NCBI GenBank assembly: GCA_048268245.1
Contig: JBLWVX010000003.1
Location: 64,001 to 128,000 of the forward strand
Direction of reading: 5' to 3'
DNA length: 64,000 bases
Source: Arcobacteraceae bacterium
GTDB lineage: Bacteria > Campylobacterota > Campylobacteria > Campylobacterales > Arcobacteraceae
A program made the position numbers and the translations under genes. A model generated the notes under the pieces. That model was given only the letters and a program-made list of their open reading frames with translations, was not told where the DNA came from and ran no database searches. Positions within the stretch are counted from its first letter, which is position 1. Every line of letters starts with the position of its first letter. Shown here one piece after another: positions 12,410 through 39,848 of this stretch.

Positions 12410-12778
12410 TTATTCTTTAAGATTTGTAAATAATTTAGGTATTTTATCTTTTATAATATATTGGCCAATTAAATTGTGTCTTTTATTTATTAAAATTGGG
12501 GCTACAAGATTTACTATTGATTTTTCAATAGGGTCTTGAAGTACCACAGAAAAATATATATCAAAGTCTTCTCTTGATCTTATATGCATTTTCTCTAAGA
12601 TATCATCTTCAATATTGAAATCAAAAGCAGCATGTTGTAAGTACTTTATATTTACAATTGTAAAGTTAATCATATTCTCTTTATCAAGAATTAAAGTTGA
12701 GAAATATTCGTCTAGTTTTTCTAAGTTTACTTTTTTAATTTCATCAAATCCAAGTAAAGGAATAGTAATTTCGTACAT
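12410..12778 (-). CDS. fliW: Flagellar assembly factor / CsrA antagonist FliW
   Basis: PLLGFDEIK N-terminus, S.VNLVAPILIN; start moved to ATG 12778, after AAGG. Confidence 0.85.
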   Translation of the reverse strand: MYEITIPLLGFDEIKKVNLEKLDEYFSTLILDKENMINFTIVNIKYLQHAAFDFNIEDDILEKMHIRSREDFDIYFSVVLQDPIEKSIVNLVAPILINKRHNLIGQYIIKDKIPKLFTNLKE

Positions 12779-12840
12779 TTGAAGCCTTTTTTGTAGTGAC
12801 ACAATTTTATTGAAAGTATACTTAGGATATGATATATCTT

Positions 12841-13821
12841 ATGTATAGAAACGAATTTGATAATCATTTAAAACAGAATAAAAAATTTAATGCTTATATG
12901 TTTTTTGGTCAATCAACTTTTTTAGTTGAGTATTATGCTTCTAAAGTAGCGCAACTACATGGTAATAAAGAAGATGTAGAAAAACTATATTTTGATGATT
13001 ATGATTTCAAATATGCAAAAGATAAACTTTTGCAATCCTCTTTATTTTCTGACAATAATATACTTTTAATAAAATTAGATAAAAAAAGACCTAAAAAAGA
13101 AGTTATGGAGCTAATTGAAGCTTGTAATACAAATAGTAATAGTACAGTAATCTTCTCATGTTTAGGTGATAGTGAATTTAAAACAATGGGAAGCTATTTT
13201 AGTGATAAAACAAACTCTGTTAGCATTAGAATGTTCTCACCTGCAAATCATGAAGCTATAAAAATTTTAGAGAATGAAGCTAGAGCATTAGGCATAAATT
13301 ATGAAATACCTGCTTTAAATCATTTATTTTTCATGCATAAAAATGACTTGTCACTATGTATGAATGATTTAAAAAAACTTGCAGTATTAGATGTAAAAAT
13401 TACTTCAAACATAATAAATAGTCATTGTTTTGGAATAGGTGATGTATCTTTTGAAGACTTCTTAAATGATTTAATTCAAGGAAAAGATATAAGCGATGAT
13501 TTGCAACTTTTATTAGAAGAGGGTGTAAATGAAATATATCTTTTATCTCAAGTGACTTCTTATGTTCAACAATTATTTATGATAAGCTCATATGCTAGAA
13601 CAATGGGTGCTCCAAACCCAAAAGAGATATTAGGTTTTGTTCCTCCAAAAAATATTTGGGAAAAGAAGTCAAAACTAGCAATAAATATTAAGCCAGAAGT
13701 CTTTGCTGATATGATGGAATATTTACTTGATATTGAACTAGAGTTTAAAACTTCAAAAATCACTAATCAAAACTTGTATTTACAAGCAACTCTAAGAAAG
13801 TTTACAGTTTTATTTAGATAA
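12841..13821 (+). CDS. holA: DNA polymerase III subunit delta
   Basis: MYRNEFD N-terminus, QSSLF clamp-binding motif, position before rpsF. Confidence 0.85.
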   Translation: MYRNEFDNHLKQNKKFNAYMFFGQSTFLVEYYASKVAQLHGNKEDVEKLYFDDYDFKYAKDKLLQSSLFSDNNILLIKLDKKRPKKEVMELIEACNTNSNSTVIFSCLGDSEFKTMGSYFSDKTNSVSIRMFSPANHEAIKILENEARALGINYEIPALNHLFFMHKNDLSLCMNDLKKLAVLDVKITSNIINSHCFGIGDVSFEDFLNDLIQGKDISDDLQLLLEEGVNEIYLLSQVTSYVQQLFMISSYARTMGAPNPKEILGFVPPKNIWEKKSKLAINIKPEVFADMMEYLLDIELEFKTSKITNQNLYLQATLRKFTVLFR

Positions 13822-20189: not shown

Positions 20190-20432
20190 ATGGAATTATT
20201 ATTTGCTAGAAACGAGTTAAATGAAAAACCCAAAAAAGTACAATTAGATAAGATTAAAGAAGAATTACAAAAAGAGGGTGAAAAAATTTTCTATTTTGAT
20301 AGAGATAATTCTCACAAAGATATGATGGCATTAGTAGATGCTTTAGAAGATGAAGGCTTAAATGTATATTTTAGAGAAGTTAAATACGGTTTAGCTGATG
20401 AAGAATATATGTATGAGGTTCATGCACTTTAA
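20190..20432 (+). CDS. HP0268-family small nuclease
   Basis: IFYFDRDNSHKD, FREVKYGL...EYMYEVH; position upstream of miaB. Confidence 0.85.
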   Translation: MELLFARNELNEKPKKVQLDKIKEELQKEGEKIFYFDRDNSHKDMMALVDALEDEGLNVYFREVKYGLADEEYMYEVHAL

Positions 20433-20451: not shown

Positions 20452-21762
20452 ATGAGTTCAAACAAAAAATTATTTATTCAAACTTTAGGGTGTCAGATGA
20501 ATGACACTGATAGTCAACACATTGCAGCTGAATTAGAAAAGCATAAAGATTATACTCAAACTGAGCAAATTGAAGATGCTGATTTAATTATAATTAATAC
20601 ATGTTCAGTAAGAGAAAAACCAGTTCAAAAACTTTTTTCTGAAATTGGTCAATTCAATAAAAAGAAAAAAGATGGAGCTAAGATTGGTGTTTGTGGATGT
20701 ACGGCAAGTCATTTAGGAAACGATATCATTAAAAGAGCTCCGTATGTTGATTTTGTAGTTGGTGCTAGAAATATCTCTAAAATTAAAGATGTTGTTGATG
20801 TAAAAGGTGCAGTTGAAATTGCAATTGACAATGATGAGTCAATGTATGAGTTTGCTGCTGCAAAAACAAATAAATACAGAGCAAGTGTAAATATTTCAGT
20901 TGGTTGTGATAAAAAATGTACTTACTGTATTGTTCCAAATACTAGAGGTGAAGAGATTTCTATTCCACCCGAAATGATTGTAAAACAAGTGCAAAATGCA
21001 GTTGATGAAGGTGCAGTTGAAGTAATGCTTTTAGGTCAAAATGTAAACTCTTATGGTAGAAGATTTTCAGATAAAAGACCTAAATACTCTTTTACTAAAC
21101 TTTTACAAGATGTTTCTAAAATTGAGGGATTAAAAAGAATTCGATTTACATCTCCTCATCCTTTACATATGGATGATGAGTTTATTGAAGAATTTGCAAA
21201 AAATGAAAAAATCTCAAGATGTATTCATATGCCATTACAAAGTGGTTCTACTTCAATTTTAAGAGCTATGAAAAGAGGATACACAAAAGAGTGGTTCTTA
21301 AATAGAGCAGCTAAAATGAGGGAATTAGTTTCAAACCTTAGAATTACAACGGATATTATTGTTGCATTCCCTGGTGAAACTAATGAAGATTTCCAAGATA
21401 CTTTAGATGTTGTAAGAAAAGTAGGATTTGATCAAATTTTTAACTTTAAATACTCACCTAGACCTGAAACAGCAGCATTAGATCTTAAAGATCAAGAAAT
21501 TCCAGATGAAATTGGAAGTGCAAGATTAACAGAGTTAATTGAACTTCATAAAAGACATCTTGAAGAAGAAATGCCAAAATTAGTTGGCTCTACTGTAAAT
21601 ATTTTAGTTGAATCTTTAAAACCTAATGGTGAGATTTCTGGATATACTGATAACTATCTTCAAGTATTTGCAAAAGGTAGTGATGAACTATTAGGTAAAT
21701 TTGTGGATGTTAAAGTAACAGATGTAACAAGAACAGCTTTAAAGGGTGAAGTTATAGCCTAA
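20452..21762 (+). CDS. miaB: tRNA 2-methylthio-N6-isopentenyladenosine synthase
   Basis: TLGCQMN, NTCSVRE, CDKKCTYC radical-SAM motif, C-terminal TRAM domain. Confidence 0.97.
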   Translation: MSSNKKLFIQTLGCQMNDTDSQHIAAELEKHKDYTQTEQIEDADLIIINTCSVREKPVQKLFSEIGQFNKKKKDGAKIGVCGCTASHLGNDIIKRAPYVDFVVGARNISKIKDVVDVKGAVEIAIDNDESMYEFAAAKTNKYRASVNISVGCDKKCTYCIVPNTRGEEISIPPEMIVKQVQNAVDEGAVEVMLLGQNVNSYGRRFSDKRPKYSFTKLLQDVSKIEGLKRIRFTSPHPLHMDDEFIEEFAKNEKISRCIHMPLQSGSTSILRAMKRGYTKEWFLNRAAKMRELVSNLRITTDIIVAFPGETNEDFQDTLDVVRKVGFDQIFNFKYSPRPETAALDLKDQEIPDEIGSARLTELIELHKRHLEEEMPKLVGSTVNILVESLKPNGEISGYTDNYLQVFAKGSDELLGKFVDVKVTDVTRTALKGEVIA

Positions 21763-22373
21763 TGAAGCTTTTCTTTAAACTAAAAATATTACCATACTTC
21801 TTATATTTTTTAGTTAGATTAATCTATGCTACAAACAAAAAAGTTTATCATCATCCAAAATTAGGTGATGAAGCTTTTGTTTTTGTTATGTGGCATGGAG
21901 ATCTACTTAGTCAACCTTTTAATTACAAAGCCCAAAGAGGTAATAGAGTAGTAAAAGGTATGATTAGTTTAAATAAAGATGGAGAAATACTATCTAAAGT
22001 TTTTGCACTTTTAGGAATAGAAGCATTAAGAGGTTCTTCTTCTAAAGGTGCAGCTAAAGTTTTAATTAGTACAATTAAGGAAATTAAATCAGGAAGTGAC
22101 GTAGCTATTACTCCTGATGGTCCAAGAGGGCCTAGATTTTCTGTAGCAAATGGTGTTGTAGCCATCGCTCAAAAAAGTGGTTCTAAGGTTGTTGTATTAA
22201 ACTCAAAACCAAGTAAATATTGGCAGTTTAATTCTTGGGATAAGTTTATTTTACCTAAGCCTTTTGGTAAAATAGATTTTTATATGTCAGAACCTTACGA
22301 TATTAGTAACTTACAAATGGATGAAGCAAAAGATTTTATAAAAGAAAAACTAATGGTTCATTCAATTAAATAG
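21762..22373 (+). CDS. lpxJ: DUF374 lysophospholipid acyltransferase family, LpxJ-like lipid A late acyltransferase
   Basis: WHG, S..KDGE, RGSSSKGA, TPDGPRGP, SWDKFILPKPF; same position as H. pylori HP0270. Confidence 0.75.
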   Translation: MKLFFKLKILPYFLYFLVRLIYATNKKVYHHPKLGDEAFVFVMWHGDLLSQPFNYKAQRGNRVVKGMISLNKDGEILSKVFALLGIEALRGSSSKGAAKVLISTIKEIKSGSDVAITPDGPRGPRFSVANGVVAIAQKSGSKVVVLNSKPSKYWQFNSWDKFILPKPFGKIDFYMSEPYDISNLQMDEAKDFIKEKLMVHSIK

Positions 22374-22389
22374 TTTAAATAGGAAATAT

Positions 22390-23952
22390 ATGTTTAGTAA
22401 AGAGTCTTTATATATTAATGCAATTAAATATGATACTCAATTAAAGCTAGATTATAAAAAACTAGATGATGAGCAGATAATAGAAGCGAATAATTCAGTT
22501 TTTTTAGTTAAAGATGAGATTTTATCCCATGAAATTGCACACAAAATTAATGCATCTCAAAAGCAAACACCTTTAAGCTATATTTCTACTTTACTTATTA
22601 GTGATACTACAAAGTTAATTCCTAAATCAAGTAAAAGGCCAATTGATTGTGAAATAGTACATTTTAATAATGAATATGATATTGCTGTTTTAAAATCTAC
22701 TCTTTTTGAAACAGAACACTATTTTGAAAAAACAGGTATTGATTATATTTATTCTGCTTTTCACATTTTAAATCTTCATATTGAGCAAAAAGTATGTAAA
22801 AATCAGCTTTTGATTTTTTTATTTAATAATAAGGCATTTATTTTAATTCTTGATGATAAATCAAAGATTGTATATAGTAAGACAGTTGAACTTCCAACTT
22901 TTGAAAGTGTTAAAAAAACACACTTTTACGATGATGATGTAGTGGGACAAAAACTTTTTGATGAAATTTATTATTTAGAACTAAGTGAAATAATTCACAA
23001 TAATTTAAATGAGTTTTATGAGAGTGAGTCTCAAACATTTATTGATAAGATTACTATTTTATATACTTTAAAACAACTAAGCCAAGAGCAAATTGATAAT
23101 TTAAGTAATGAACTATTACTTACAATAGATTATCAACCAATAAATATTGATGAAGAAATTTTTGAATTATCAAAAGATAAACATCACAAACAAAGCTTTA
23201 TAAGCCCAAGAAGGAAAGAGAAAAAGAATAATTACTTTAGTATATTAATAGTATTATTTTTTGCACTGGCCTTTTATGGAGTTTATATTTTATTTGATGA
23301 AGTATCCCACAATAAGACTCAAGAAACTAAAACCCAAAAGAATATAAGAAGTGAAGTTAAACTTCCTGATCATGTTAATAAAAACGATAGAATAACAAAA
23401 AGGATAAAAGCTATTTTTGACTCAATTCCTTATGATGTAGTATTGAGTGAAATGGTTGTAGATGGTGATGCTTTACTTTTAAAAGCTAAATTTTTAAAAG
23501 ACGATACTTTTATAAAGTCGCTTCAACCTGAACTTGGTTCACTTTATGAAACAATAGAAGTTGAACTAGATTCTAAAGATAAAAAGCATTTTGTAGATGG
23601 TACTGTTATGGCTAAAGATTTACTTGATTTAGAGGACATTAACTATAGAAAATATAATAATAAATATATTGTTGATGAATTTTTCCCTATTTCAAGAGTG
23701 ACAGAACAATTAAAAATCTTAATGCCTGAAAATGCTATAGTAAAATTTCAATCAAGTCAAAATAAAAAAGTCACAGTTTTTAACTATTTAATTAATATTG
23801 AGATTTCTACACCTAAAGAATTTTTTGATTTGATTGACATGATAAATAATGAACTGTATTCAATTACTATCTCATATCCTATAAGTATGATAAAGAATGA
23901 TGAAGGTAAGTTAGATATTGAGTTTAATGTACAATTTAATCAACCTCAATAG
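22390..23952 (+). CDS. Single-TM protein with PilM-like, PilN-like and PilO-like segments (putative fusion)
   Basis: TM at about aa 282-302; PilN-like IFDSIPYDVVLSEMVVDGDALLLKA; position directly after miaB-lpxJ. Confidence 0.6.
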   Translation: MFSKESLYINAIKYDTQLKLDYKKLDDEQIIEANNSVFLVKDEILSHEIAHKINASQKQTPLSYISTLLISDTTKLIPKSSKRPIDCEIVHFNNEYDIAVLKSTLFETEHYFEKTGIDYIYSAFHILNLHIEQKVCKNQLLIFLFNNKAFILILDDKSKIVYSKTVELPTFESVKKTHFYDDDVVGQKLFDEIYYLELSEIIHNNLNEFYESESQTFIDKITILYTLKQLSQEQIDNLSNELLLTIDYQPINIDEEIFELSKDKHHKQSFISPRRKEKKNNYFSILIVLFFALAFYGVYILFDEVSHNKTQETKTQKNIRSEVKLPDHVNKNDRITKRIKAIFDSIPYDVVLSEMVVDGDALLLKAKFLKDDTFIKSLQPELGSLYETIEVELDSKDKKHFVDGTVMAKDLLDLEDINYRKYNNKYIVDEFFPISRVTEQLKILMPENAIVKFQSSQNKKVTVFNYLINIEISTPKEFFDLIDMINNELYSITISYPISMIKNDEGKLDIEFNVQFNQPQ

Positions 23953-23963
23953 ATTTAATAAAA

Positions 23964-23994
23964 GAATTAAAGGTTAATTCCAAACCTTTAATTC
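23964..23994. terminator. Hairpin between convergent genes, overlapping the mqnE 3' end
   Basis: GAATTAAAGGTT-N7-AACCTTTAATTC. Confidence 0.6.
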
Positions 23995-25045: not shown

Positions 25046-25366
25046 CTATTTACAGTCTAAATCTTTACTGAACTCTTCATTTCTTCCAATATGAATAAAA
25101 CCAATACAAGTTTTACTTAGATTACTATCAAAGAATCTTACTTTATATACTGTACTTTTATATCTAGTCTTAGTATCTTCTACCCTTAATTTATTAATCA
25201 CTTCCATACTATTTACATTTTTGTGTCCTAAAGTAGCAAGTATTTCAACCATTTTTTTCTCTTTTAAGTCTTTTAATACTAAAAATATAGCAAATGCAAT
25301 TGCTACTATAATTGTTATAATAATAACAGTTTTTTTAGGTAATCTTCTTATTTCGGTTTCACTCAT
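25046..25366 (-). CDS. Small membrane-anchored hypothetical protein
   Basis: N-terminal TM, two C-terminal Cys, AGGA SD. Confidence 0.7.
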   Translation of the reverse strand: MSETEIRRLPKKTVIIITIIVAIAFAIFLVLKDLKEKKMVEILATLGHKNVNSMEVINKLRVEDTKTRYKSTVYKVRFFDSNLSKTCIGFIHIGRNEEFSKDLDCK

Positions 25367-25374
25367 ATTTTTTC

Positions 25375-26031
25375 CTAATCTTCTATTTTCATTTCTCTTA
25401 GTGGTTTAAACTGTTTCTCTTTTTTGTCTAAATAATCAATCTCTCCATTTTGTACATCATAATGCCATCCATGAATTTCTAAACTACCATCTTCAACCTT
25501 TTGTTTTACATCAGGGTAAGTTAAAAGATTTTTTAATTGCTGTTTAATAGAATTTCTCTCAGTGATTCTATACATTTCTTCTTCTGTAGTAAACTTTTTA
25601 TCTGCTAATGTTTTTTCTTTTGCAGCCATTCCAAGTTTTAACCATGTTTTTACATGAACTAAAGAAGTAGTATCTGGAATTTGATCATATTCATATAAGC
25701 TTTTACATGCACCACAGTGAGTGTGTCCACATACAATAATGTGTTTTACACCAAGAACAGCAACAGCATATTCAATAGCTGCTGCACTACCATGGAAATC
25801 TTCATCATGTTTAAATGGAGGAATAAAGTTTCCAACATTTCTTAAAATAAACATGTCCCCTGGTTTTGTATTTAACATTATATCAGGTGTTAATCTACTA
25901 TCTGAACATCCAACAAATAGTACTTCTGGCTTTTGACCATTTAAAACTAATTCATTTAGTTCTTCTTGCCATTTTGGAACCTTGCATTCTTGAAAACTTT
26001 TGTGACCTTTGATTAATTGTTTTAAAATCAT
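25375..26031 (-). CDS. can: Beta-class carbonic anhydrase
   Basis: GCSDSR, RNVGN, CGHTHCG zinc ligands. Confidence 0.95.
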   Translation of the reverse strand: MILKQLIKGHKSFQECKVPKWQEELNELVLNGQKPEVLFVGCSDSRLTPDIMLNTKPGDMFILRNVGNFIPPFKHDEDFHGSAAAIEYAVAVLGVKHIIVCGHTHCGACKSLYEYDQIPDTTSLVHVKTWLKLGMAAKEKTLADKKFTTEEEMYRITERNSIKQQLKNLLTYPDVKQKVEDGSLEIHGWHYDVQNGEIDYLDKKEKQFKPLREMKIED

Positions 26032-26270
26032 TTTATTTTACTCTTATCCATTATTATTTTTTTATCATTTACAGTTAATGCTGTAATTTTATTTATATTG
26101 TCTTTCTCTTCATCATCTTCGAGTTTATATTCAATAATATAATCCATTTTATGACAAGATACCAAAACTGTATACCTAGATAATTGAATCTTCTCACATT
26201 TTTTGATATTTTCAATTTCATTTGAAAAAGTAAATGTAAAAAGTGTAATTAACAAAGTAACTATTTTCAT
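26028..26270 (-). CDS. Small secreted hypothetical protein
   Basis: Signal-peptide-like N-terminus; ATGA overlaps with both neighbours. Confidence 0.65.
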   Translation of the reverse strand: MKIVTLLITLFTFTFSNEIENIKKCEKIQLSRYTVLVSCHKMDYIIEYKLEDDEEKDNINKITALTVNDKKIIMDKSKIK

Positions 26271-31815: not shown

Positions 31816-32481
31816 TTAAACCTTTTCTTTCTCATATTCAATCATATATCCAACACCTCTAACATTTGTTATAAAATCTTCTTTTAAAGATTTTTTGACT
31901 CTATTAACTTCTGCTCTAATTGTAGCATTATCAATTTCATCACTCCAAACAAACTCTCTAAACGTGTCATATTTTACAACTGAGTTTTTAAACTTTGTTA
32001 GGAGTTGAATGATTTGTATTTGTCTTTTTGTCAAACTTTGAACTTCGTTATTATACAAAAGAGTTAGAGTATTTGGATTAAAACTATATGAATCTGACAA
32101 TTTTTTATCTTTTTGGGGTAGTATCTTAGCTTGACTAATTTTGTCAATTCTAAGTGATAACTCTTTTAAATGAAAAGGTTTTTTTAAATAGTCATAGCAT
32201 CCAAGTTCAAATGCCCTTGAAATATCTTCAATATCAATAAGTGCAGAAATATAAATAGTTGGAACAACTCTACTTCTTTTATGCAAAAACTCTAGAACTT
32301 CAAAGCCATTAATATCAGGGACATTAATATCTAATATCAATAAATCAAACTCTTCCATATCTAATATTCTAAGACAGTTATTCCCATCTCTAGCACTTCT
32401 TACTTCATACTTCTTTGATTGTAAAAATTGTGTTATTGCTCTATTTAGCATAACATCATCTTCTAGTAATAAAATTTTCAT
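31816..32481 (-). CDS. OmpR-family response regulator
   Basis: LLEDD, LDINVP, DYLKKPF, winged-helix NVRGVGY. Confidence 0.95.
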   Translation of the reverse strand: MKILLLEDDVMLNRAITQFLQSKKYEVRSARDGNNCLRILDMEEFDLLILDINVPDINGFEVLEFLHKRSRVVPTIYISALIDIEDISRAFELGCYDYLKKPFHLKELSLRIDKISQAKILPQKDKKLSDSYSFNPNTLTLLYNNEVQSLTKRQIQIIQLLTKFKNSVVKYDTFREFVWSDEIDNATIRAEVNRVKKSLKEDFITNVRGVGYMIEYEKEKV

Positions 32482-34385
32482 ATTATTTCTCTTTCATTAA
32501 AAAGATATTTAAATGAAGTAAAATACTCATTTGAATCTATTTTAATATCTATATTTTCTTCGTCACAAATTCTTTTGACTAAACTTAGTCCTAAACCAAA
32601 ACCTTTTTTGGTTGAAGTTTCTCTATAATACTCTTTAAATATCTTTTCAGGATATTGAATATATTGTGAACAACTTGAAATTGTTAAAGCATAGGTTTTA
32701 TTCTCTTTTTTTAATGTTATATAAATATTAGAGTTTTCTTCTGTGTATTTTATAGCATTAGTTAGATTATTATCTATTATTCTTTGAAGTTTAGTTTCAT
32801 TAAATTCAAAAATTAATGACTCTTTTTGGCTAAAGAATTTAATTGTTGAACCTATTTGTTTAGCTGACTGCCAAAAAAAGTCTATTCTTGATCTTATAAA
32901 ATCTACAAAATCAATTTTTTTCTTTGGGTATAGTATTTGGTCTTTTTTTACTAAGTAACTTAAATCATCATAAATATTAAAAACATTTTTTAGAGCTACT
33001 TCAATTGTAGATAAATAGGAGTTTTTACCATACTCCATTTCAAAAAGTTCAATATTACTCATTATTACGGATAATGGAGTATTTGTTTCATGTACTGCAT
33101 GTCTTAAAAAAATCTTTTGAGATGCTAATAGCATTTGAGAATTAAATTTTTCTGTTTCTAGTTTATTTGATTGTTCATTATAATCTTTAGAAGATTCTTC
33201 TATTAAATGGGTTAGAGTTTTTATATTTCTTGTATAGAAATCATCTAAACTTTTTTGTTCAACCTCTGAAATAAACTCTTTTTTTGTATTTTTAATATTT
33301 TCACTTAATGATACTACTGTAAAAGTCTGATTTAGAAGTTCAGCTTCTCCATCTTTATAAAAAAACTCTCCATTTCCAAAAAAACCACTTGTTGTAGCTA
33401 TTTCTGAATAGTCTTTACTTTCATTAAAAATAAGATTTGGCATATATCTTCTTCTTGCTAAACAAGAGTAAATAAAAAAGGTCTCACTATTTGTAAACTT
33501 CTTTTTATCTGTAATTATTTGTTTTTTTAAAATTATTTCAGCATTTCCAAAACCAAATTTAATTTTATCTTTATTTTTTAGATTTCCTGTATATTGAAAA
33601 CTTCCATCTTTATGTATTTTCATTAAGGCTCTTGCTAGGAAACTTTTATTTCTTTTTACAAGTAAAGGAAATGTGGTAGCACTTTCAGGTAAACTATCAA
33701 GAATATCATCACCTAAGTACCTTTTATAAAAATCAGTAATTTTTAAATTGTTTATTTCATATACTTTATTATTGATTGATTTTGTGATTTCATGTTCAAT
33801 CCCAATACTAGACCAATTGAATCTAAAATCATTTTTTACTTCAAGAACATCTGAATTTATAGATACTCCCACTGCGCTATTTTGATATAGTTTGTCATCT
33901 AGTGATACATAGGTATTTTTATAGTTACCATTATCTGCAGCCATTGCACCACAGATAGGTATATTTTTAGAAATACTATTTATACCTTTTAAAAACTCTT
34001 CAGCATTAATATTTAAAGAATTTGTAAAAAGTATTAAAAGTTTGCTATTTTCATCTACTAAATCTTTTGCTAAACTTACACCTTTTTTATATGAATCTTC
34101 AATTTCACTAAAACTACTTTTTAATGAACTCTTTTCAAATATACTAATAGATACTACAATTGATTCTGTTAAAACTTCTTTTTCTAGAATTTCACCATCT
34201 GAACTACTTCCTATACAAGTAGCTTTTGGTAGGTTAGTTTTTAAGTATTTAATTACTTCTTCAAATTGTTTTTTGTTTTGTCCACAAAAAACTTGTACTA
34301 AAATATTGCTGTGATTTTTAAATTGCTCAAAGTCAATATTTTCTTTGGAAAAGTTCTTATCTATTTTATAGTTGTAGGTTTTCAT
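32478..34385 (-). CDS. Cytoplasmic FIST-domain sensor histidine kinase
   Basis: FIST motifs GSSSDGEI, GAMAADN, YSCLARR, GFFGNGE; H-box HETNTPL, N-box NNLTNAIKY, G2 GFGLGL; no TM. Confidence 0.88.
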   Translation of the reverse strand: MKTYNYKIDKNFSKENIDFEQFKNHSNILVQVFCGQNKKQFEEVIKYLKTNLPKATCIGSSSDGEILEKEVLTESIVVSISIFEKSSLKSSFSEIEDSYKKGVSLAKDLVDENSKLLILFTNSLNINAEEFLKGINSISKNIPICGAMAADNGNYKNTYVSLDDKLYQNSAVGVSINSDVLEVKNDFRFNWSSIGIEHEITKSINNKVYEINNLKITDFYKRYLGDDILDSLPESATTFPLLVKRNKSFLARALMKIHKDGSFQYTGNLKNKDKIKFGFGNAEIILKKQIITDKKKFTNSETFFIYSCLARRRYMPNLIFNESKDYSEIATTSGFFGNGEFFYKDGEAELLNQTFTVVSLSENIKNTKKEFISEVEQKSLDDFYTRNIKTLTHLIEESSKDYNEQSNKLETEKFNSQMLLASQKIFLRHAVHETNTPLSVIMSNIELFEMEYGKNSYLSTIEVALKNVFNIYDDLSYLVKKDQILYPKKKIDFVDFIRSRIDFFWQSAKQIGSTIKFFSQKESLIFEFNETKLQRIIDNNLTNAIKYTEENSNIYITLKKENKTYALTISSCSQYIQYPEKIFKEYYRETSTKKGFGLGLSLVKRICDEENIDIKIDSNEYFTSFKYLFNEREII

Positions 34386-37894: not shown

Positions 37895-39848
37895 ACTTAT
37901 TTAAAATAATTTGTAATAAAGCAGCTTTATAATTTTGCCCATGACATTCAATTTGAGTGTTTTTAGCAGTAATTTTACCTTTCATATGACTTACAATAAT
38001 AGTTCTTGTCATATATAATCCTATCCCTGTACCTTGCGATTGAAATTTTGTTGTAAAATATGGCTCAAAGACTTTATTAATAATTTCATCTTTTATACCA
38101 CCTGCATTATCGTAAACTTCAATATATCTCTCATTGTCTTTTTCAAAAGCTTTTATTTTTATACATTTGATTTCTAATTCTTTTTCTAGTAATGCATCTT
38201 TTGAATTATTTAAAATATTTAAGATAGCTTGTGTTAGTTCATTTTCTAAGGTATAAAGTTCAATATTTTCATCAATTTCAAGTTTTATTTGAATCCCTTT
38301 ATTTTTTAAACTTGCAGACATTAAGTTTATAACTTTTTCAATTGTACTTTTTAGATTGATGCTTGTTTTAATTTTGTCTTTTTTAAAGAAGTTTCTAAAA
38401 TCTTCAATAGTATTTGATAAGTGCTGTGTATTTGATACAATTAAATCAAGGTTTTTATAAAGCTTTTCTTTATTCATAAGATTTAGTTCATCTTCAAATT
38501 TAGTACCGGAAGCTATTGTACTTATAGTTGATAAAGGTTGTCTCCATTGGTGGGCAATATTTCCTATCATTTCACCCATTGAAGCTAGTCTTGATTGTTG
38601 ATTAAGCATTTCATCGGCTTTTCTCATTTTTAAAACTTGTTCTTTTACCTGTGATTCTAAAGATTCATTTAGCTTTTTTAGTTGATGGTTGTTTTCTTTT
38701 AGTTCATTTTCGTATTTTTTAAATTGTAAATCTATTCTTCTAGATATTAATAAAAGCAAGATAATTAATAATAAACTTATAATAGAAGAAATTAAAATAA
38801 TTTTATACTTTGCATCTTTTACTTCTTCTTCAAGTTTTAGTTTTTTCTTTTGTATTTCTTCTTGAATTTTAGTTGTGTATTGACCTGTTCCAATAACCCA
38901 ATTTAACTTTGGTACTTTTTTTACAAAAGATATCTTTTTAGATAGTTTTTCTGAAATATTATGACTAGTAGGTGTATATCCTAAGAATGAACCACCTTCA
39001 ATAGAGGCTTTTTTTAAGATATTTTTGATTACATTTTGCTCTATTTTTGAAAGTGTTTCTATTTTTTTACCAATAAAAGATTTATTTATATGAGATAAAG
39101 TAGTTCCTTCTTGATTAATTACAAATAAATATTCATCTTTTTCATAACTTATTGTATCAATAATTCTTAATATTTGATGCTGTATCTTTTTATCAATATC
39201 TTCAATATACTTTGCAGTTCCTATATAAATACCCAAAGGTTCAAAAAGTTTTACATATCCAAGTTTTTTCTCAATTCTATTGGTTTTTGGTTTTTGCCAA
39301 TGCCAAGTTGTAAAACCTTCTTTTTTTGTTGAGACTATATTATTAAACTCTTGTATAAAATATTTACCTTCTTTATCTTGTAGATTGGAAAGAGTTTTTC
39401 CTACATGTGATGGGGTTTGAGGTTGCATAATAACTTTATCATTTAAATCTATTATAAAAAAGTAGCCACTAGCATTTGAGTAAAACCTTTGAGGGTTTAA
39501 ACTTTTTATAATTAGACTAAGGATTTCTTCTTTTGGTTTTGATTCATTTTGTAAATATATTTGTTTGATTGTTTTATATCCAATATTAACGATATTCTTG
39601 ATATTGTTTTTTTCTTCAATAGTATTTAAATTAGTTTGAGTTTCAATAAGTTTAATAATCCTATTTACTCTATTTTTTATTGTTTTTTTAATTTCTTCTA
39701 CATAGTTTGTTTGAATATTTTCTATTTCTTCTTTAAACTCTTTATTTCCATAAGAAATAAATTCATAAGTTAGAATAGTTGAAGTTAAAATTACTGCCAT
39801 AATAGGAAGGATTATGATCCAATATGTGATATTGTTAAGTCGTCTCAT
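37893..39848 (-). CDS. Two-TM sensor histidine kinase with tandem Cache domains
   Basis: GYFFII...D.EGKYF..W.KP...KLGYV Cache motif; NIAHQWRQPL, NILNNSKDA, DNAGGI, GTGIGL. Confidence 0.92.
   Translation of the reverse strand: MRRLNNITYWIIILPIMAVILTSTILTYEFISYGNKEFKEEIENIQTNYVEEIKKTIKNRVNRIIKLIETQTNLNTIEEKNNIKNIVNIGYKTIKQIYLQNESKPKEEILSLIIKSLNPQRFYSNASGYFFIIDLNDKVIMQPQTPSHVGKTLSNLQDKEGKYFIQEFNNIVSTKKEGFTTWHWQKPKTNRIEKKLGYVKLFEPLGIYIGTAKYIEDIDKKIQHQILRIIDTISYEKDEYLFVINQEGTTLSHINKSFIGKKIETLSKIEQNVIKNILKKASIEGGSFLGYTPTSHNISEKLSKKISFVKKVPKLNWVIGTGQYTTKIQEEIQKKKLKLEEEVKDAKYKIILISSIISLLLIILLLLISRRIDLQFKKYENELKENNHQLKKLNESLESQVKEQVLKMRKADEMLNQQSRLASMGEMIGNIAHQWRQPLSTISTIASGTKFEDELNLMNKEKLYKNLDLIVSNTQHLSNTIEDFRNFFKKDKIKTSINLKSTIEKVINLMSASLKNKGIQIKLEIDENIELYTLENELTQAILNILNNSKDALLEKELEIKCIKIKAFEKDNERYIEVYDNAGGIKDEIINKVFEPYFTTKFQSQGTGIGLYMTRTIIVSHMKGKITAKNTQIECHGQNYKAALLQIILNK

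Follow-up and report, generated by a model that had tools for sequence, protein, structure and literature searches.

The closest described counterparts of the gene analyzed here belong to the flagellar motor cage of Campylobacterota. In Campylobacter jejuni, the proteins encoded by CJJ81176_0481-0479 have been named FcpM, FcpN, and FcpO, and deletion of fcpMNO leads to loss of the peripheral cage, with stators seen in only ~10% of motors (PMC11870540). The C. jejuni cage also requires PflD, which is predicted to form a three-helix membrane bundle with FcpN and FcpO (PMC11870540). In Helicobacter pylori, PilN and PilO are part of the motor cage (PMC10823254), and the cytoplasmic tail of PilO, the FcpO equivalent, binds CheV1 in two-hybrid experiments (bioRxiv 10.1101/2023.04.27.537399); the same preprint confirms the numbering HP0271/0272/0273 given for the H. 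pylori genes in the original prediction for this locus.

A fused form of these proteins has also been described. The legends of Fig. 6b and Extended Data Fig. 10 of PMC11870540 (bioRxiv 2025.02.19.638559) refer to a "fusion of genes fcpMNO" in Arcobacter. For a total of 27 Arcobacter genomes, the supplement of that work (Supplementary Tables 4 and 5) gives FcpMNO fusions that measure 519-542 aa, and PflD is scored "-" throughout. Supplementary Table 4 gives fusions of 520-528 aa for 15 Arcobacter species, in which FlgY, PflA, and PflB are present, PflD is "-" and the type IV pilus (T4P) set is "No"; Supplementary Table 5 covers 14 Arcobacter genomes (519-542 aa), two of them common to Table 4. 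For the aflagellate A. acticola, Table 5 lists no fusion, and aflagellate species of Nitratifractor and Sulfurovum, which belong to other orders, are reported in the same work to be without the genes (PMC11870540). The fusion work is cited as Feng et al. 2026 in a 2026 review (PMC13023049); a literature search for DUF8342 or for a PilM/PilO fusion in Arcobacter yielded nothing beyond the study and this citing review. The only Arcobacter motor studied by tomography is that of A. butzleri, in which the proximal ring has 16-fold symmetry and stators are not resolved, and the portions of that report available to us do not mention a cage (PMC5758724).

The fusion in Arcobacter is thus already known, and the expectation that the architecture would prove distinct and unreported was not borne out: the central claim of the original prediction is correct but published. 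In its text, legends, and tables, PMC11870540 flags the fusion and does not describe the anatomy of the joins or the function of the fused form. What the analysis adds is the anatomy of the joins, an M domain devoid of conserved glycines, and, as the one point that reaches past published work, the retention of the gene under selection in relatives without flagellar-marker matches. The sequence analyzed, hereafter the window, is a stretch of 64,000 nucleotides from an Arcobacteraceae genome (GCA_048268245.1, contig JBLWVX010000003.1, positions 64,001 to 128,000). We put at roughly three in four the probability that its 520-aa open reading frame (ORF) is the single-chain version, found in Arcobacteraceae, of the proteins FcpM/FcpN/FcpO from the flagellar cage, distant homologs of PilM/PilN/PilO, with the proposed role in a motor ring included in that estimate.

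Locus, sequence relatives, and distribution

The features of the locus are collected in Table 1. A 520-aa ORF had been expected directly after HP0268-miaB-lpxJ, and both the ORF call and the PF18618, TIGR01574, and PF04028 matches bear this out; the name lpxJ for the DUF374 gene follows PMC10823254. The four sequence strings quoted in the original prediction are all present in the protein, at aa 342-366, 439-451, 477-497, and 508-514. A gap of 16 nt separates lpxJ from the ATG, and mqnE is the convergent gene 3' of the ORF. An HP0268-family gene also lies 5' of miaB in three further loci, the order HP0268-miaB-lpxJ-ORF is constant across all family loci examined, and the window and its relatives share the placement immediately after miaB (and lpxJ) that fcpMNO also has. 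As had been claimed, no type IV pilus genes adjoin the ORF: there are none among the ~60 larger ORFs of the window, of which fliW (12413-12802) is the sole flagellum-related gene. FliG is present in this genome.

Table 1. Features of the fused gene and its neighborhood, in window coordinates
Feature	Position	Strand	Basis or remark
HP0268-family gene, opens the conserved block	20190..20432	+	PF18618, E 8.2e-35
miaB (tRNA methylthiotransferase)	20452..21762	+	TIGR01574, 534 bits (cut-off 355)
DUF374 gene at the lpxJ position	21762..22373	+	PF04028, E 6e-24
Ribosome-binding site AGGA, 5 nt 5' of the ATG	22381..22384	+	Read off the sequence
Whole fused FcpM-FcpN-FcpO ORF	22390..23952	+	520 aa, ATG start, stop codon included
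FcpM/PilM-like actin-fold domain, shortened, presumably cytoplasmic, aa 1-268	22390..23193	+	
SFISPRRK, aa 269-276	23194..23217	+	Conserved motif S-F-I-x-P-R-x-K
Sole transmembrane helix, aa 282-305	23233..23304	+	Hydropathy and model
Short linker, aa 306-327	23305..23370	+	Low confidence, pLDDT <50 at aa 306-319
FcpN/PilN-like alpha-beta-beta-alpha-beta-beta core, presumably periplasmic, aa 328-411	23371..23622	+	
Linker in place of the FcpO cytoplasmic tail, membrane helix, and part of the stalk, aa 412-433	23623..23688	+	
FcpO/PilO-like alpha-beta-beta-alpha-beta-beta core, presumably periplasmic, aa 434-520	23689..23949	+	
Inverted repeat, 12-bp stem, terminator-like, between the ORF and convergent mqnE	23964..23994	.	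Pattern scan only

Public databases label the protein hypothetical or DUF8342, so that a name would be useful for annotation; its database homologs carry precomputed PF27038 and PF27037 assignments, with DUF8342_N as the ESM Atlas name. Pfam and NCBIfam scans of the 520-aa protein gave nothing usable. Among 52 homologs scanned with Pfam, PilM_2 (PF11104) and PilO (PF04350) matched none and PilN (PF05137) one, at a noise-level E of 0.056; this lack of a significant match to the three models counts against the motor-cage explanation. The single match of PilM_2 in this genome, at 20 bits, falls in a different gene, and a search of PDB sequences with two homolog profiles, a narrower one (A1) and a broader one built from 52 sequences (A2), returned no relative. 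Sequence databases nonetheless hold many homologs, 416 of 7,999 scored candidates falling at E <= 0.001. The 120 matches listed are of 509-546 aa and 54-98% identity, cover the whole query in 119 cases, and include named homologs from Arcobacter, Aliarcobacter, and Poseidonibacter; representatives clustered at 50% identity comprise more full-length relatives, with identity as low as ~22%.

The connection to FcpM, FcpN, and FcpO emerged from the rest of the phylum. Searched over 401 Campylobacterota genomes, a 20-homolog profile found a match in each of the 23 other members of the same family, in 21 of them as one uninterrupted frame spanning the profile. In other families the profile was matched only piecewise, by frames of ~335-367 aa (positions 1-160 and 200-290), ~175-198 aa (positions 260-400), and ~172-204 aa (positions 400-515). 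Weak matches at profile positions ~220-400 are unreliable without synteny, since two in long frames that had been taken as candidate PilMN fusions (G144 and G383) proved to be SecD and an AAA ATPase, false matches due to the membrane and lysine-rich segment, and were rejected. At five loci from other families, miaB and lpxJ are followed by three ORFs (333-336, 174-191, and 172-189 aa) or, in family f8, by two. Profile A2 matched all 13 syntenic ORFs of five other-family genomes, colinearly and at 16-98 bits, with E-values that refer to this 13-sequence set only. The FcpM-like ORFs aligned with profile positions 6-184 and 198-266, the FcpN-like ORFs with 260-420 (beginning at FcpN residue 2 or 3 and ending at ~404-420), and the FcpO-like ORFs with 396-528. 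No similarity between the N and O cores was detected by hhalign (probability 0.2).

These profile matches at the same locus, together with the fold described below, show the predicted order M-N-O with a single anchor, and the survey of fused versus split forms likewise agrees with what had been proposed, with one frame in Arcobacteraceae and separate or part-fused ORFs in other families. The identification draws mainly on the sequence link to FcpN and FcpO; the modeled structure is consistent with PilN/PilO without proving it.

Within the family, the gene was found in 183 of 184 genomes. Profile A1 recovered it in 177, and A2 in all six of the misses that were retested (G495 was left out), which marks the apparent absences under A1 as a limit of sensitivity. 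Nearly all of the 150 matches shown consist of a single frame, 520-566 aa long, that spans the profile from end to end; the exceptions are two pieces at contig ends (G551), a match to positions 144-520 with two internal stops (G474), and matches to positions 1-346 (G441) and 1-206 (G525). A long ORF might also arise as an artefact, either because sequencing or assembly errors have merged three genes or because a pseudogene is decaying. Conservation refutes both versions, to which we assign a negligible probability: the frame is open at this length in nearly all of those 150 matches, the 120 listed database clusters with full-length homologs derive from several sources, the junction regions are conserved, and dN/dS stays far below 1.

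Anatomy of the joins and predicted fold

The single transmembrane segment placed at aa ~282-302 by the original prediction is supported by hydropathy, with one region only (window starts 280-288) exceeding a 19-residue Kyte-Doolittle mean of 1.6 and a best value of 1.25 elsewhere; in the model, the helix spans aa 282-305. The 21 residues preceding it contain eight K/R. Upstream of the helix lies the motif S-F-I-x-P-R-x-K, whose S and K are each conserved in 44 of 52 sequences and whose F and R are each conserved in 37; the motif forms the extreme N-terminus of separate FcpN proteins (aa 3-10 in the FcpN of G222). The layout of motif (269-276), helix (282-305), and core (328-411) is that of PilN. 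The membrane anchor and coiled-coil stalk typical of PilO are absent, the chain having one hydrophobic helix and a 22-residue linker ahead of the O core. Separate FcpO proteins align only from residue 37-63 or later (128 in one), past their own hydrophobic helix, so the join kept the FcpN anchor and dropped the FcpO anchor and cytoplasmic tail. Keeping the one and dropping the other is the sole arrangement that leaves both cores in the periplasm.

Other segments have been trimmed as well. Opposite aa 306-327, separate FcpN proteins have a longer helical stretch and the alignments are gapped; the stalks that connect membrane and cores are shortened in the fused protein. About 60 FcpM residues (~198-261) have no counterpart in the fused chain and, judging from their position after the second beta-sheet unit, may correspond to the IIB subdomain.

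A full-length AlphaFold2 model built from 52 sequences reached a pLDDT of 88.2. In it, aa 1-268 adopt an FtsA/PilM-type actin-like fold with two beta-beta-beta-alpha units, and two alpha-beta-beta-alpha-beta-beta units follow at 328-411 and 434-519. Among homologs, no glycine of aa 1-268 is conserved at >=80%, and no D-x-G motif occurs in the two beta-hairpins of this region, the sites at which actin-fold proteins bind phosphate. This pattern suggests that ATP binding by the PilM-like domain is unlikely, and that the M domain may serve as a scaffold rather than as an ATPase or nucleotide binder.

The periplasmic part, modeled alone (aa 322-520, 17 sequences), gave a pLDDT of 91 and a pTM of 0.85; the latter places the two cores confidently relative to each other and indirectly supports a compact N:O pair within one chain. 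In fold searches over 48,161 chains, the top rank for the last domain went to PilO, and GspL periplasmic domains were best for the first periplasmic domain, in both cases with modest Z-scores that lie below the level clear of chance and are tied with unrelated small folds. Foldseek returned no match to the periplasmic model at E <= 0.001 (the top rows were PCNA, TM ~0.1). As to the fold assignments of the original prediction, aa 1-268 show the PilM actin-like fold, and the PilN/PilO cores were matched only at modest Z and by nothing significant in Foldseek.

GspL is itself a natural fusion of PilM-like and PilN-like parts, and the fold matches include both GspL cytoplasmic domains (1w97, 4pht_Y, 5tkw) and GspL/GspM periplasmic domains (2w7v, 5hl8, 8a9w, 1uv7, 7ze0). 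The protein might be the GspL/GspM-like platform on which a secretin-dependent type II secretion or type IV filament machine, with its genes at another site in the genome, is assembled. Secretins and T2SSE ATPases do occur here, with four matches to the former and four to the latter over the cut-off, and both kinds are found in seven of seven aflagellate-candidate relatives checked; FapA (PF03961) was not found in this genome. However, type II secretion clusters normally encode their own GspL and GspM, the gene never adjoins such genes in the loci read, where its fixed neighbors are miaB and lpxJ, and its sequence relatives are FcpM, FcpN, and FcpO. No gsp cluster (GspE, GspM, secretin) surrounds the ORF within the window, the closest secretin and T2SSE ATPase lying outside it at contig positions 52162-58105, ~28 kb upstream. 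The T4P set scored "No" across the 15 Arcobacter species of Supplementary Table 4 (PMC11870540) points in the same direction. Nothing positive supports a link to these machines, and we regard such a role as very improbable.

Retention in genomes without flagellar-marker matches

The most serious challenge to a motor-cage role comes from genomes in which flagellar markers were not matched. FliG_C matched in 160 of the 184 family genomes, and 12 of the 24 negatives were checked for FHIPEP and Flagellin_N. FlhA and flagellin were both present in three of these 12, so that FliG alone is a poor marker of flagellar loss; the FliG of these three genomes is probably just unassembled. G401, assembled as one contig, shows no FliG or FlhA match and flagellin-like matches only, and its copy of the gene is intact at 523 aa. 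Eight of the 12 had no FliG_C, FHIPEP, or Flagellin_N match: G447, G448, G449, and G287, all of genus g9, together with G493, G495, G456, and G453. Seven of these eight marker-less genomes, themselves 92-100% complete, carry the gene. In five (G447, G448, G449, G493, and G453) it follows miaB-lpxJ as an ORF of 486-529 aa; in G287 it is spread over the ends of two contigs, and in G456 a contig end truncates it.

Selection on the gene was assessed by pairwise Nei-Gojobori estimates, with genus g9 as the marker-less lineage tested. Among the G447, G448, and G449 copies, dN/dS was 0.14-0.17 (dS 0.86 for the closest pair); of nine flagellated pairs, eight fell at 0.12-0.25 and one at 0.44. The gene is under purifying selection in genus g9, with dN/dS ~0.14.

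If the marker-less genomes are truly without flagella, the gene is kept there for another reason. Its main role, or a further one, could then be flagellum-independent, such as that of a scaffold that spans the membrane in some other envelope process, with the cage role not fully carried over. The seven marker-less genomes that keep the gene after miaB-lpxJ favor this reading, as do a dN/dS in g9 no higher than in flagellated pairs and the intact copy in the one-contig genome without FliG or FlhA matches. Three missing marker families in draft genomes are, however, not proof that flagella are absent, and the g9 copies are very divergent, at ~20-22% identity to the 520-aa protein. No alternative partner emerged from the analysis, and aflagellate species of Nitratifractor and Sulfurovum are reported to lack the genes, with none listed for A. 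acticola either (PMC11870540). On balance, we consider a flagellum-independent role doubtful, though clearly less so than a secretion platform. Retention in marker-less relatives sits uneasily with a purely flagellar role and weakens the link to the motor; it also bears on the published conclusion of strict co-occurrence between these genes and flagella. A stronger version seems to us similarly improbable: the one-chain FcpMNO would act in the membrane as a scaffold that needs neither PflD nor other partners, has no tie to the flagellum, is maintained by purifying selection where flagellar genes have been lost, and has, or has regained, a second cellular role.

Proposed arrangement and comparison with known systems

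Under the preferred reading, that of a single-chain cage protein, the product would be a bitopic inner-membrane unit with a cytoplasmic M domain and periplasmic N and O cores. The N-terminal motif and helix kept from FcpN would connect the PilM-like scaffold to the periplasmic N:O pair; the N and O cores, joined by the 22-residue linker and held near the membrane, may pack together like a PilN:PilO heterodimer whose halves are covalently linked. Many copies could ring the edge of the motor at the inner membrane and stabilize or regulate the stators, or act on stator retention or surface behavior. Such a ring would play the role of the separate C. jejuni and H. pylori proteins but would do so in the absence of PflD and of the FcpO tail, which contacts CheV1 in H. 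pylori. Loss of that tail and of the second helix of the PflD-FcpN-FcpO bundle agrees with two features reported for Arcobacter, namely the lack of PflD and a chemosensory class other than F3.

In this lineage, a connection with the flagellar motor is a proposal by analogy: homology would place the fused protein at the motor. Against it stand the need of the C. jejuni cage for PflD, which is listed as absent in Arcobacter (PMC11870540), and the A. butzleri tomography described above. As a natural single-chain PilM-PilN-PilO unit, the protein would be a handy object for structural study of how cage units assemble, and it shows what can be dispensed with: PflD, the long stalks, and, in FcpO, both the membrane helix and the cytoplasmic tail.

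The PilM-PilN-PilO proteins of type IV pili (2ych, 5eou, 2rjz, 5uvr, 3jc8) share with the 520-aa protein, as modeled, the FtsA-like actin fold and probably the ferredoxin-like periplasmic cores. They differ from it in that the fused protein has no Pfam-level similarity to them, neither a conserved M-domain glycine nor glycine-rich nucleotide loops, no long coiled coils, and no pilus genes nearby. GspL has the layout of the first two thirds of the chain, with an actin-like cytoplasmic domain, one membrane helix, and a ferredoxin-like periplasmic domain, and GspM corresponds to the last domain; here, in contrast, the gene context is different and the third module is fused as well.

The separate FcpM/N/O proteins of C. 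jejuni, equivalent to H. pylori PilM/N/O, are homologous modules in the same order and at the same locus, and the FcpN N-terminal motif is kept in the fused protein. The fused form departs from them in being one chain rather than three with one membrane helix rather than two, in lacking the FcpO tail and the ~60 FcpM residues, in its shorter stalks, and in the reported absence of PflD. Intermediate arrangements also exist. Nitratiruptor has an FcpMN fusion and a separate FcpO at the same locus (338-344 and 167-174 aa; PMC11870540), and family f8 shows the same pattern of partial fusion, with MN ORFs of 335 and 402 aa adjoining a separate O of 171-181 aa; unlike in the 520-aa protein, O in f8 retains a membrane helix of its own, and the M part is trimmed more heavily. 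Closest of all are the published Arcobacter FcpMNO fusions, which occupy the same locus after miaB in the same family and measure 519-542 aa as compared with 520 aa here (PMC11870540); in what that source gives of them, they show no difference in kind from the protein described here.

The fused gene in Arcobacteraceae relatives

An intact fused FcpM-FcpN-FcpO gene follows miaB-lpxJ in six relatives (G447, G448, G449, G493, G453 and G401; loci L042, L043, L044, L045, L046 and L047, respectively). A marker search of Arcobacteraceae genomes returned no match to the flagellar families FliG_C and FHIPEP (FlhA-type) in any of the six; Flagellin_N was also without a match in these genomes, with the exception of G401. 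The dN/dS of the fused gene is ~0.14 in the small-genome genus g9, which does not exceed the level in flagellated relatives.

Irregular copies of the gene are present in other family members. In the flagellated G494 the homolog is divergent, and a single in-frame TAA falls within the match; two full-length FHIPEP matches were observed on separate contigs of the same genome. The match in G474, a genome rated 81% complete, is limited to positions 144-520 of the homolog profile and contains two internal stop codons; this copy may be broken.

Surroundings of the fused gene

The fused gene and the convergent mqnE are separated by 21 nt. An inverted repeat in this gap, whose stem measures 12 bp, may serve as a two-way terminator. 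Two small ORFs with no family assignment share the stretch that carries mqnE, bioF and a beta-carbonic anhydrase gene. Elsewhere in the window, fliW (PF02623) adjoins a divergent 330-aa ORF without a Pfam family, and histidine kinases represent two sensory systems. Outside the window, 6-12 kb ahead of its start, a secretin is found near a T2SSE-type ATPase, and the fused gene is located ~28 kb downstream of this pair; contig C24 holds a second secretin-ATPase pair.

Coordinates of features in the window, its genome (G000) and relatives
Feature	Location	Strand
fliW and divergent ORF	window 12413-13818	- (fliW)
Inverted repeat	window 23964-23994	
106-aa ORF	window 25046-25366	-
80-aa ORF	window 26028-26270	-
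Response regulator, FIST-domain histidine kinase	window 31819-34385	-
Double-Cache histidine kinase	window 37896-39848	-
Secretin, T2SSE-type ATPase	G000 C3:52162-58105	
Divergent homolog	G494 C13:2925-4397	-
FHIPEP matches	G494 C5:17872-19878; C87:614-2626	
Partial match	G474 C1:1441494-1442660	-
FcpM-FcpN, 402 aa	L014:2612-3820	-
FcpM-FcpN, 335 aa	L015:2502-3509	+

Partial fusion in another family

Within f8, another Campylobacterota family, FcpM-FcpN fusions occur beside a separate FcpO. The membrane helix of the 335-aa fusion begins at residue 189, and its PilM-like part is therefore shortened to ~175 residues.
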